Assembly (NCBI RefSeq): GCF_054482595.1 | Contig: NZ_CM137008.1 | Length of the DNA stretch: 64,000 nucleotides | Reading direction: 5' to 3' (one strand) | Shown here: positions 1,655 to 20,545 of the stretch, one piece after another | How the letters are laid out: each line of letters opens with the position of its first letter | Position numbering within the stretch: the first letter of the stretch is position 1 | Position numbers and translations under genes: made by a program | The notes under the pieces: generated by a model | Database searches by the model: none | The model's input: only the letters and a program-made list of their open reading frames with translations | What the model was told of the DNA's origin: nothing

Positions 1655-2754
1655 CAGATGATTTCCAGTTTTGCCCGCAGACATCCCGCACTTTGCATTG
1701 ATTGCAAAATAGACATCAGATCCATCGGCGTAGCGCCCAGCGCATTGAGCGCACGCACCACGTTATTGAGGCTGGCGCTGGAACGTACGCTTTGCAGCGA
1801 ACCGCCGCTCTGGCGTAAATCGATCTGCGTTTGTGGCGTTACCACGGTCTGTCCGCCACCAAACGGTGTATCTGGTTGGCTGACATTGGCCTGACGATTT
1901 ACCGTAACTGAGAGATTCCCCTGCGCTACCGCGCAGCTGTCGAGGGTCACTTCGCGATTCATCACCACCGAACCGGTGCGCGAGTTAATCACTACTTTAG
2001 CGTCCTGCGGGGTGACATTAACCTGCATATTCTGGATATCTGCAAGGAAACGGACCTGGGAACTGTTGCCACTTGGTACGCGCACCTGAATAGTCCGCGC
2101 ATCCAACGCGGTGGCGCTGCCATATCCACGCACTCGGTTGATGGTGTCAGCGATTTGCTGCGCCATGCTGAAATCTTCGTCGTTAAGTTGCAAATTAAGG
2201 GTATTCCCGACGCCAAACTGGCTGGGCAATTCACGTTCAATAACCGCACCATTGGTGATCCGTCCACCATTCAGTTGGTTCACCTGAACACTGCTACCGC
2301 CAGCGGAGGCTCCTGCGCCGCCAACCAGAATATTGCCCTGCGCCAGCGCATACACCTGACTGTCAACGCCCTTAAGCGGAGTCATCAACAATGTGCCGCC
2401 ACGCAGGCTTTTGGCATTTCCCATGGAAGAAACCACCACGTCAATGGTTTGCCCCTGACGTCCAAACGGTGGAAGTGACGCCGTCACCATTACCGCAGCA
2501 ACGTTTTTTAGCTGCATATTGGTGCCCGTCGGAACGGTAATTCCCAGCTGTGAGAGCATGTTATTAAGCGTTTGTGTGGTAAACGGCGTCTGGGTTGTCT
2601 GGTCACCGGTGCCATCCAGCCCCACTACCAGGCCATAGCCAATCAGTGAGTTTTGCCTTACCCCCTGAACACTGGTGAGATCGCGAATACGCTCAGCCTG
2701 AGCCGCCGTCGTAACCAGTAGAAGAATTAATGCAGAGAGAAATTTAATCACCAC
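1654..2754 (-). CDS. flgI: Flagellar P-ring protein FlgI
   Basis: ORF translation M(V)[24 protein letters not shown]; signal peptide; operon position. Start may be the GTG 3 nt downstream. Confidence 0.95.
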
Positions 2755-2762
2755 AGCCTCAC

Positions 2763-3461
2763 TTACATTGGCGACAGGTTAAGGAAGAAACGCTGCAACC
2801 AGCCCATATTTTGCGCTTCGTTAATGTAGCCATTGCCTACGTATTCAATGCGCGCATCCGCCACCTGAGTAGACGGTACGGTATTGCTGCCGCTGATAGT
2901 GCGTGGATTAACCACGCCAGAGAAGCGAATAAATTCGGTACCCTGATTAATGGCAATCTGTTTTTCACCCACCACATGCAGATTGCCGTTGACCAGTACC
3001 TGGTCAACCGTCACCGTCAACGTGCCGCTAAAGGTATTGCTGGCATTGGCCCCGCCTTTTCCGTTGAACGTGTTACCACCGGAGGCTTCGACATCGGCAC
3101 GAGCGTTACCAAACAGCCCCTGCAAATAGCGCGGCACAGTATCAAAGCCAAAATTAGTTTTACCGTCACGGCTGGCATTCGCAGAGGAGCTTTTGCTGGC
3201 GCTGACGTTCTCCTGCAACACGATGGTCAGCGTATCGCCAATATTGCGTGGTCGACGATCTTCAAACAGCGGTTGATAGCCATAGTTAATCGGCTGAGCA
3301 GACTGGAAAATAGAACCGTTGGCGACGGGCGTCGGACCGGGAACCGGTTGTGCACTGGTCGCCCCCTGCACCAGCGGCGTGGAGGGTATCCAGGCGCAGC
3401 CGGTTAGTGAAAGCACCAACAAGCTGGAAATGGCATAAGTATGCGCAGCGTTTTTTTGCAT
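2763..3461 (-). CDS. flgH: Flagellar L-ring lipoprotein FlgH (232 aa)
   Basis: Translation [22 protein letters not shown] with lipobox; ORF track begins 5 codons upstream at 3476. Confidence 0.93.
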
Positions 3462-3513
3462 GGCTATCATCTTCAAAAATCAATAAACCGGTGAACCTGC
3501 CACCGGTTATGCC

Positions 3514-4314
<801 letters not shown>

Positions 4315-18438: not shown

Positions 18439-19557
18439 ATGAAATACGATCTCATCATTATTGGCAGCGGTTCCGTAGGCGCTGCCGCCGGGTATTATGC
18501 AACCCGCGCCGGTTTAAACGTGCTTATGACCGACGCCCATATGCCACCACATCAACACGGCAGCCACCACGGCGATACGCGATTAATTCGCCATGCTTAT
18601 GGTGAAGGCGAAAAGTATGTCCCGCTGGTCCTCCGCGCACAAACGCTGTGGGATGACCTCTCCCGCCACAACGAAGATGATCCCATTTTTGTACGCTCTG
18701 GTGTCATTAACCTTGGCCCGGCTGACTCCGCATTTCTCGCCAACGTCGCCCACAGCGCCGAACAGTGGCAACTCAACGTTGAAAAGCTCGATGCGCAAGG
18801 GATTATGGCCCGCTGGCCAGAAATACGCGTCCCGGACAACTACATCGGCTTATTTGAGACTGATTCCGGTTTTTTGCGCAGCGAACTGGCGATTAAAACC
18901 TGGATCCAACTGGCGAAGGAAGCGGGCTGTGCGCAACTGTTCAACTGCCCGGTCACCGCAATTCGTCATGAGGATGATGGCGTAACTATTGAAACTGCTG
19001 ATGGTGAGTATCAGGCGAAAAAAGCGATTGTCTGCGCGGGAACATGGGTAAAAGACCTGCTCCCGGAGCTGCCTGTCCAGCCCGTACGTAAAGTATTTGC
19101 CTGGTATCAGGCCGATGGCCGCTATAGCGTGAAGAATAAATTCCCGGCGTTTACCGGTGAACTGCCCAATGGCGATCAATATTATGGTTTTCCGGCAGAA
19201 AACGACGCGTTGAAGATTGGCAAACATAACGGAGGCCAGGTTATCCATTCAGCGGATGAACGTGTTCCGTTTGCGGAAGTGGCCAGTGATGGGTCAGAAG
19301 CCTTCCCGTTCTTGCGCAATGTATTGCCGGGTATCGGTTGCTGCCTGTACGGCGCTGCCTGCACCTATGATAATTCGCCTGACGAAGATTTTATTATCGA
19401 TACCCTACCCGACCACGATAATACACTGCTCATTACCGGCCTGAGTGGGCACGGTTTTAAATTTTCGTCAGTTTTAGGGGAAATAGCTGCCGATTTTGCG
19501 CAAAACAAAAAAAGCGATTTTGATTTGACGCCATTCAGGCTTTCCCGCTTCCAATAA
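18439..19557 (+). CDS. solA: N-methyl-L-tryptophan oxidase SolA (372 aa)
   Basis: ORF translation [25 protein letters not shown] with FAD-binding GxGxxG. Confidence 0.96.
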
Positions 19558-19565
19558 TCATCATT

Positions 19566-19591
19566 ACGGCCTCCAGAATGAGGCCGTTTTT
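19566..19591 (+). terminator. Rho-independent terminator after solA
   Basis: ACGGCCTC-cagaat-GAGGCCGT followed by TTTT. Confidence 0.6.
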
Positions 19592-19718
19592 ACAGGAGTA
19601 TTTAATGCGTCGGCTGTTGCACTATCTCATCAATAATATTCGCGAGCATCTGATGCTTTATCTTTTTCTCTGGGGATTGTTGGCAATTATGGATCTGATC
19701 TATGTGTTTTATTTTTAG
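19578..19718 (+). CDS. yceO: Small protein YceO (46 aa)
   Basis: Small [49 protein letters not shown], too short for ORF track; start lies inside the solA terminator hairpin. Confidence 0.55.
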
Positions 19719-19978
19719 TTTTCCGCACTGACATAAACTGACAAATATTTAATCTCCCTTTCATTTAGCGTGAAAAATTGAATGAGATTATTCCTGCTTC
19801 TACAGCACTCACCAGACACCTCTGATGCTGAACCCACTAAACTTATGAAGATTCTTTCATTATTAATTCAAAATTATTGAAATAAAAATAAATATCATTC
19901 AATTTGTTATTTTTGTGTTGCAATTCATTCTCCGACACGCCATTTTCTTTCTCTCGCAAATTCGTTTTGGATGCACTT

Positions 19979-20545
19979 ATGTCATTCACAAATACCCCTG
20001 AACGCTATGGTGTTATATCTGCGGCCTTCCATTGGCTAAGCGCAATTATTGTCTACGGCATGTTTGCTTTAGGTCTGTGGATGGTCACGCTCAGTTATTA
20101 CGATGGCTGGTATCACAAAGCACCCGAACTGCATAAAAGCATCGGTATTTTGTTAATGATGGGGCTGGTTATTCGCGTTCTGTGGCGTGTCATATCTCCA
20201 CCGCCGGGTCCGCTGCCGAGTTATTCGCCCATGACTCGTCTTGCCGCAAAAGCTGGACATCTCGCATTGTACCTATTGCTGTTCGCCATCGGCATCAGCG
20301 GCTATCTGATCTCAACTGCCGATGGTAAACCGATCAGCGTTTTTGGCTGGTTTGACGTCCCCGCGACCCTTGCCGACGCTGGCGCACAGGCAGACTTTGC
20401 CGGTGCCCTGCATTTTTGGCTCGCGTGGAGCGTCGTAGTACTGTCCGTTATGCACGGATTTATGGCCCTGAAGCATCATTTCATCGATAAAGACGACACT
20501 CTGAAGCGCATGCTGGGAAAGTCGTCATCTGACTATGGAGTATAA
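19979..20545 (+). CDS. yceJ: Cytochrome b561 family protein YceJ (188 aa)
   Basis: Translation MSFTNTPERYGVISAAFHWLSAIIVYGMFALGLWM; ORF track extended 25 codons upstream. Confidence 0.93.
   Translation: MSFTNTPERYGVISAAFHWLSAIIVYGMFALGLWMVTLSYYDGWYHKAPELHKSIGILLMMGLVIRVLWRVISPPPGPLPSYSPMTRLAAKAGHLALYLLLFAIGISGYLISTADGKPISVFGWFDVPATLADAGAQADFAGALHFWLAWSVVVLSVMHGFMALKHHFIDKDDTLKRMLGKSSSDYGV

Follow-up and report, generated by a model that had tools for sequence, protein, structure and literature searches.

Translation of yceO very probably starts downstream of the solA terminator hairpin

At which ATG does translation of the small gene yceO begin? In the 64,000-nucleotide stretch of contig NZ_CM137008.1 analysed here (the window), the ORF list contains a reading frame at 19578–19718 that specifies 46 amino acids (aa), and an in-frame ATG at 19605 would yield a product of 37 aa, both as claimed in the preliminary description of this stretch. 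That description placed the yceO start codon within the terminator hairpin of the upstream gene solA and offered two alternatives, namely initiation at 19578 on read-through transcripts whose structure modulates initiation, or a start at 19605. Taking all the evidence together, we consider it very probable that yceO starts at 19605 and comprises 37 codons, that 19578 represents an over-extension, and that the hairpin is maintained by selection, and we infer that the yceO mRNA is probably a product of read-through.

Layout of the solA–yceO junction

The window sequence is 100% identical to that of E. coli strain XH990 over positions 19400–19900 and to that of E. coli K-12 MG1655 over positions 19550–19625, and the ORF list and RefSeq annotation give the plus-strand gene order dinI, bssS, solA, yceO, yceJ and yceI (Table 1). 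The solA stop codon reads TAA (19555–19557) and is followed, after 8 nt and on the same strand, by a hairpin with an 8-bp stem containing six G–C pairs (5′ arm ACGGCCTC, 19566–19573; 3′ arm GAGGCCGT, 19580–19587) and a 6-nt loop, CAGAAT (19574–19579). The first T of the downstream T-run (19587) is able to pair with A19566. The A and T of the ATG at 19578–19580 are the final two loop bases and its G opens the 3′ arm; the earlier placement of this codon in the loop and 3′ arm of the solA stem-loop is thus borne out by the sequence and by RNAfold.

The hairpin is present in both the minimum free energy (MFE) and the centroid structures, with an energy of −14.0 kcal/mol for the hairpin alone and a range of −12.3 to −14.0 kcal/mol across estimates; the z-score of the 81-nt fold, calculated on a single sequence, is only −1.74. 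Scored separately, the hairpin and its T-run have a positive d’Aubenton-Carafa-type value (d = 9.9). A generic consensus terminator scan of the window did not call the hairpin (19566–19591), probably because, on our reading of the stated rule, the A–T closing pair is counted as part of the stem and four T are left in the tail; the same scan may also under-call other terminators in which the first U pairs with an upstream A. No Rfam families were found within positions 19200–20100.

The sequence between the T-run (19587–19591) and the ATG at 19605 is ACAGGAGTATTTA. Both the Shine–Dalgarno (SD) sequence AGGAG and the start codon at 19605 lie just beyond the hairpin, which ends 17 nt before this yceO start, so that the folded stem leaves the SD unpaired by the stem. 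With the usual initiation footprint, a 30S subunit positioned on the ATG at 19605 would extend back to about the base of the stem. On the predicted fold, initiation at 19578 would require melting of the stem, whereas the hairpin could stay folded during initiation at 19605. The stretch from 19578 to 19604 is most likely an untranslated spacer made up of hairpin, U-tract and SD. A pairing of CUCC (19571–19574) with GGAG (19595–19598), which would sequester the SD, was considered and rejected, as it comprises only 4 bp versus the 8-bp stem.

Table 1. Features of the solA–yceO junction in the window and, in the last three rows, of the corresponding Kluyvera intermedia locus (L050, in its own coordinates).
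Feature	Position	Strand	Evidence
solA (N-methyl-L-tryptophan oxidase) CDS	18439..19557	+	ORF list; RefSeq annotation of identical or near-identical E. coli loci
GC-rich hairpin, terminator-type stem-loop of solA	19566..19587	+	Sequence; MFE and centroid structures; energy; covariation
T-run, 5 T after the stem, then ACAGGAG; moderate U-tract	19587..19591	+	Sequence; d = 9.9 with nT = 3.71
Putative 27-nt pseudo-extension: ATG of the K-12 MG1655/UniProt 46-aa annotation and 8 codons	19578..19604	+	No SD; outside the Pfam profile; unconserved ORF
Shine–Dalgarno sequence AGGAG, 6 nt 5′ of the ATG at 19605	19594..19598	+	Sequence; anti-SD duplex of −6.9 kcal/mol
yceO, likeliest translated form: 37 codons and TAG stop	19605..19718	+	Pfam PF10968; PGAP starts; conserved start; third-position bias
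L050: hairpin	2626..2647		
L050: yceO	about 2665..2778		
L050: trhO	2775..3905	−	

Start signals, protein family and conservation of the frame

The two candidate starts differ in their ribosome-binding signals. The predicted duplex with the anti-SD reaches −6.9 kcal/mol for 19605 (AGGAG, 6-nt spacer) versus −1.7 kcal/mol for the 20 nt upstream of 19578; by this measure, 19605 looks like a canonical SD-led start and 19578 does not. Motifs of the GGAG, AGGA or GAGG type occupy the corresponding place in most orthologous loci. Opening the region from −15 to +12 is predicted to cost 17.2 kcal/mol at 19578 and 13.2 kcal/mol at 19605, a modest separation that rests on weak predicted long-range pairs. 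Inspection of the sequence revealed no in-frame ATG, GTG or TTG between the two positions.

The protein family has the same boundary. The reading frame matches the Pfam family DUF2770 (PF10968) with E = 2.4e-22 and 79.1 bits (cut-off 25), and profile positions 1–36 of 36 correspond to residues 10–45 of the 46-aa ORF, the first profile position being the Met encoded at 19605. This match over the full 36-position profile identifies the gene as yceO (E. coli K-12 b1058, UniProt YCEO_ECOLI), for which the reference entry has 46 aa, in contrast to the 37-aa form from 19605 found in the profile, the PGAP records and the orthologues. A HMMER search of 1.84 billion representative proteins returned only 37 relatives, most of which align their residues 1–37 to residues 10–46 of the query; in relatives with longer called N-termini, the extra residues resemble neither MRPFLQEYL nor one another. 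Members of the YceO family are about 37–39 aa long and start with M-R-R at the first position of the profile, a pattern that the ORF from 19605 fits, whereas the 46-aa form carries nine residues outside the DUF2770 family. According to its hydropathy profile, the 37-aa product has a basic N-terminus and one hydrophobic helix, and YceO translated from the ATG at 19605 would be a conserved, single-pass small membrane protein of the DUF2770/YceO family. The calculated average masses are 4718.7 Da for 37 aa (4746.7 Da formylated) and 5897.1 Da for 46 aa (5925.1 Da formylated). YceO had no match in NCBIfam release 20.0 at E ≤ 1, and the PGAP name ‘YceO family protein’ probably stems from another kind of rule. 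A literature search on ‘DUF2770’ found no paper.

To place the two starts in a wider context, 56 loci were fetched from species-representative genomes with SolA as the anchor, of which 54 were usable; the sample includes Escherichia, Citrobacter, Salmonella, Kluyvera, Enterobacter, Kosakonia, Leclercia, Yokenella, Pluralibacter, Pseudescherichia, Pseudocitrobacter and Siccibacter. A YceO homologue of 37–39 aa (22 aa in one case, see below) directly follows solA in 51 of the 54 loci, spanning about 15 named genera, with amino-acid identities of 55–95%. ATG or GTG occupies the position matching 19605 in 50 of these 51 Enterobacteriaceae loci. An in-frame upstream start preceding any stop is absent from 23 of the 51, and the possible N-terminal extensions in the remaining loci range from 3 to 132 nt and differ in sequence. 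Although 33 of the 51 spacers contain some ATG, this codon is in frame and stop-free in only 17, at varying distances. In the spacer alignment, the 3′ arm of the hairpin starts with G in almost every case and the loop frequently ends in T, which produces an NTG at the junction whatever the frame; on this pattern, an ATG within the hairpin spacer is a common accident that does not exceed chance. The ATG at 19578 itself would exist only by virtue of the G of the 3′ arm being preceded by A and U in the loop. Across all genera, the majority-base frequencies in yceO are 0.79, 0.94 and 0.61 at codon positions 1, 2 and 3, respectively.

Individual loci depart from the common arrangement. The sole exception to the conserved start is Citrobacter sp. 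wls619 (L023), which has ATA at this position and a TTG 3 nt upstream as the only nearby alternative. A premature stop cuts the homologue of Salmonella enterica subsp. arizonae CCUG 6322T (L030) to 22 aa, so that it looks like a pseudogene. In Kluyvera genomosp. 3 YDC799 (L058), the solA frame meets a stop 112 codons from the matched start, and a YceO-like segment is still found downstream of this disrupted solA.

Variation within Escherichia distinguishes the two parts of the long reading frame. Among eleven Escherichia sequences, the 27-nt extension contains 11 variable sites, distributed 4/3/4 over the codon positions, whereas the 37 yceO codons contain 23, distributed 7/1/15, a pattern suggesting that the 37 codons evolve as coding sequence and that the extension does not. 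In E. coli S87, the substitution T19603A creates an in-frame TAA immediately before the ATG at 19605 (window positions 19602–19604, L061 203–205), which breaks the 46-aa ORF and leaves the 37-aa ORF intact. The exact 76-nt S87 allele occurs in 1 of 5426 genomes, and about 300 other genomes, including several named phylogroup-B2 strains, lie within two mismatches of it. Nissle 1917 (L066 206–316) has AGGGG in place of AGGAG, a substitution that would read as E7G in a coding stretch. With the exception of S87, the upstream frame is open in the sampled Escherichia, with ATG or TTG at 19578. The changes in the nine extra residues (Y to L or I, E to G, M to L through TTG, and a stop) are consistent with an absence of constraint.

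The two lengths coexist in the public record. The curated MG1655 record gives yceO a CDS of 141 nt (46 aa), as does UniProt in its 46-aa entry, whereas in 9 of 9 non-K-12 records inspected the PGAP CDS starts at the equivalent of 19605 and measures 114 nt (111 nt in Nissle 1917) under the product names ‘YceO family protein’ or ‘DUF2770 family protein’. The 46-aa and 37-aa sequences are each found on at least 1000 contigs. The correction to 37 aa is therefore already public in the automatic RefSeq annotation, and only the reference record and UniProt still deviate from it.

Published protein data demonstrate translation of the gene. In a 2025 proteomics study (PMC12529367), chromosomally encoded YceO-SPA was detected by western blot; the tag is C-terminal and thus reports translation of the gene without locating its start. 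The same study estimated the chromosomal level of YceO to be at least 10,000-fold below the arabinose-induced plasmid level, included YceO in its top-down list and recovered two YceO peptides by mass spectrometry, only from a pBAD24 construct in which the annotated ORF follows vector signals, which makes them uninformative on the native start. The N-terminal peptide of the 46-aa form was undetected in the wild type (PMC12529367), and this 11-aa peptide is probably absent from wild-type cells. Acid-stress Ribo-seq tables contain yceO only with the 46-aa coordinates and with no significant change, and other papers naming the gene list it only in expression tables or deletion lists.

What, then, speaks for the 46-aa product as the correct one? 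Under this reading, ribosomes would initiate at 19578 when the hairpin is transiently open, for instance in the immediate wake of RNA polymerase or once a ribosome has terminated translation of solA, whose stop codon lies 21 nt upstream. The ORF is open from 19578, MG1655 and UniProt list 46 aa, the sampled Escherichia species retain an ATG or TTG there with the frame open, and the N-terminal peptide has been seen by mass spectrometry, if only from the pBAD24 construct (PMC12529367). Against this stand the missing SD, the enclosure of the start-codon G and the following codons within the 8-bp stem (−12 to −14 kcal/mol), and an extension that the family profile does not cover, that most genera lack or carry only in interrupted form, and that shows no codon periodicity and contains a stop in E. 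coli S87, as well as the failure to detect its N-terminal peptide in the wild type (PMC12529367). This combination makes the 46-aa reading very improbable. Use of both starts in Escherichia, with a major 37-aa product from 19605 and a minor, hairpin-dependent 46-aa product from 19578, would agree with the stop-free frame between the two ATGs in nearly all sampled Escherichia, but it encounters the same arguments, and the nine extra residues seem unconstrained, with replacements and a stop; we regard it as improbable, if slightly less so. That yceO might instead be a chance ORF in the solA–yceJ spacer and no gene at all could be suspected from its very short length and from the lack of a demonstrated function in the papers examined. 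The likelihood of this is negligible given its conservation at 55–95% amino-acid identity across about 15 named genera (51 of the 54 loci), the strong third-position bias, the curated Pfam family and the detection of the SPA-tagged chromosomal protein (PMC12529367); conservation and tag detection have already effectively refuted it.

A start codon within the hairpin, as the preliminary description had it in its title, is thus unsupported: the SD, the Pfam profile, the orthologues, the substitutions and the S87 stop all point to 19605. Its second alternative, the 37-aa product from 19605, is strongly supported by SD strength, the Pfam boundary and conservation of the start in 50 of 51 loci, and also by the non-coding substitution pattern of the 27 nt, the in-frame stop of S87 and the PGAP annotation.

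The hairpin across genera and the origin of the yceO transcript

In an alignment of 47 distinct orthologous spacers, the eight pairs of the stem are standard in 92.8% of cells, and double changes were found in five of the eight (e.g., U–A to C–G and C–G to U–A), values that none of 500 shuffles reached. When the 3′ partner was slid along the same 47 spacers, pairing dropped to 25–54%; the structure was derived from one aligned sequence, so that the unslid register is somewhat favoured in this comparison, and the double changes are clear regardless. On this covariation, the hairpin is a real RNA element under selection. Its predicted start lies no more than 12 nt from the solA stop codon in 48 of the 51 loci, and in most loci roughly 14–30 nt separate the end of its core from the yceO start.

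The U-tract, by contrast with the stem, is unconserved. The Escherichia and Citrobacter hairpins score as plus-strand terminators, whereas several other genera have no plus-strand U-tract, and Kluyvera, Yokenella, Pluralibacter and Pseudescherichia combine poor plus-strand scores with good minus-strand scores (d = 13–65). The Kluyvera intermedia locus (L050) has neither yceJ nor yceI, and its trhO runs convergently right up to the yceO stop codon (Table 1). Here the hairpin looks like the terminator of trhO, yceO would lie in antisense orientation within the 3′ portion of trhO, and a transcript from solA would encounter no U-tract ahead of yceO. The hairpins of Kluyvera, Yokenella and Pluralibacter have a minus-strand T-run (d = 25–65) and almost no plus-strand T-run, and Pseudescherichia, which retains yceJ, shows a weaker minus-strand bias (d = 13–18); minus-strand-biased hairpins were seen in L050 and also in L043–L048, L051, L056 and L057. 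In the S. enterica subsp. arizonae locus with the truncated yceO homologue, the U-tract of the hairpin is degraded.

How is yceO transcribed if a terminator-type hairpin precedes it? The 17 nt between the hairpin and the ATG at 19605 leave no room for a promoter, and a consensus scan of the plus strand near yceO found no σ70-like promoter with at least 9 of 12 matches. A relaxed scan yielded only weak candidates, TTATCG-17-GATAAT at 19394–19422 and a −10-like AATAAT at 19553–19558 that overlaps the solA stop codon and could drive a start at the hairpin base, and the last 300 nt of solA contain no conserved block at synonymous sites. With no room for a promoter behind the hairpin and no convincing one in the end of solA, the yceO mRNA most likely stems from solA transcription that reads through this moderate terminator, yceO being the distal gene of a putative solA–yceO transcript that extends past the hairpin. 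Transcripts ending in the U-run would be without the SD. Such an origin would also yield the very low YceO levels observed. The two parts of the first alternative in the preliminary description separate: structure-modulated initiation at 19578 is unsupported, and the read-through origin of the yceO mRNA probably holds, as far as can be deduced from the layout.

The position of the hairpin would suit read-through. Operons with partial intercistronic terminators, of which there are classic examples, resemble the yceO arrangement in having a downstream gene on the same strand, an intercistronic hairpin, a distal product present at a low level and no promoter in evidence, the co-transcription of solA and yceO being putative. 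Partial terminators that set the ratio of upstream to downstream expression in an operon are also mentioned in a study of the tR2 terminator (Li et al., Nucleic Acids Res 2016, PMC4824070). When tR2 was placed at different distances from a stop codon, its repression was near-complete at 8–9 bp and full efficiency was attained only beyond about 30 bp, an effect that the authors attributed to the terminating ribosome. The solA hairpin and U-run, 8 nt after the stop codon, lie at the distance at which tR2 is almost fully repressed, a likeness by geometry alone. By this analogy, read-through is probably favoured, the hairpin being within the range over which a terminating ribosome represses intrinsic termination.

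The MG1655 Term-seq tables (PMC7815308) contain no 3′ end at the hairpin, around K-12 positions 11194xx, never name yceO and list solA only in the Rho table; the missing 3′ end may reflect low solA expression. A Rho termination region lies inside solA at K-12 position 1120419 (minus strand in K-12), equivalent to about 18606 in the window (Adams et al. 2021, PMC7815308, Supplementary file 2). This fits low, leaky expression of the whole unit and is neutral on termination at the hairpin. Located about 170 nt into solA, the Rho region would further limit the transcription that reaches yceO.

Even with the start at 19605, yceO could have its own transcript, made from a weak promoter in the late part of solA and independent of solA expression, with AATAAT or TTATCG-17-GATAAT as the candidate elements. 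Weak promoter-like matches do exist, ‘ATAAT’ overlapping the solA stop codon recurs in the Escherichia, Citrobacter and Salmonella spacers, and one published transcript table lists yceO without solA. We nevertheless consider this unlikely, though a real contender: no match reaches 9 of 12 near yceO, the elements are unconserved beyond the effect of the stop codon itself, synonymous sites at the solA 3′ end are unconstrained, and such a transcript would still need to pass the hairpin and U-run. Beyond read-through as such, one may speculate that the compact module conserved across Enterobacteriaceae, in which stop codon, hairpin, SD and start follow one another, is a device that ties YceO synthesis to solA translation, the hairpin terminating only transcripts with lagging ribosomes and being re-used as the trhO terminator in lineages without yceJ and yceI; this is a doubtful proposition, and a rarer variant of it would add a hairpin-gated 46-aa isoform in Escherichia.

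Consequences for the annotation

Over-extension of start codons by longest-ORF gene calling is a well-known annotation artefact, and the 46-aa reading of K-12 looks like a case of it. As in other such cases, an SD-less upstream in-frame ATG was chosen over a conserved, SD-led start, and the extension is neither conserved nor coding-like; unlike the usual artefact, the spurious start sits in the terminator hairpin of the upstream gene and thereby mimics a regulatory arrangement. With the corrected start, the apparent oddity of a start codon buried in a terminator disappears and the picture that remains is an ordinary one, in which read-through of a terminator near the preceding stop codon would supply a small distal gene.

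Work based on the reference inherits nine N-terminal residues that probably do not exist in cells. This concerns targeted proteomics that uses the N-terminal peptide of the 46-aa form and expression constructs built on the 46-aa ORF (as in PMC12529367), since a 46-aa construct may behave unlike the native protein. The practical value of the present analysis is that the 46-aa reference entry is flagged.

Some further variants and a neighbouring gene also bear on how this region is annotated. In Nissle 1917, YceO is 36 aa long and the conserved NNIREH motif is shorter by one Asn (NIREH). In five E. coli variants (P0128, P0129, P0133, P0134 and P0135), the TAG stop is gone or a frameshift lies close to the 3′ end of yceO, giving C-terminally extended forms of 41–45 aa, or 52 aa where the annotation uses the upstream ATG. 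For yceJ, the longest ORF runs from TTG 19904 (19904–20545, 213 aa) and the RefSeq start is ATG 19979 (19979–20545, 188 aa), making it another locus at which the longest ORF and the annotated start disagree.
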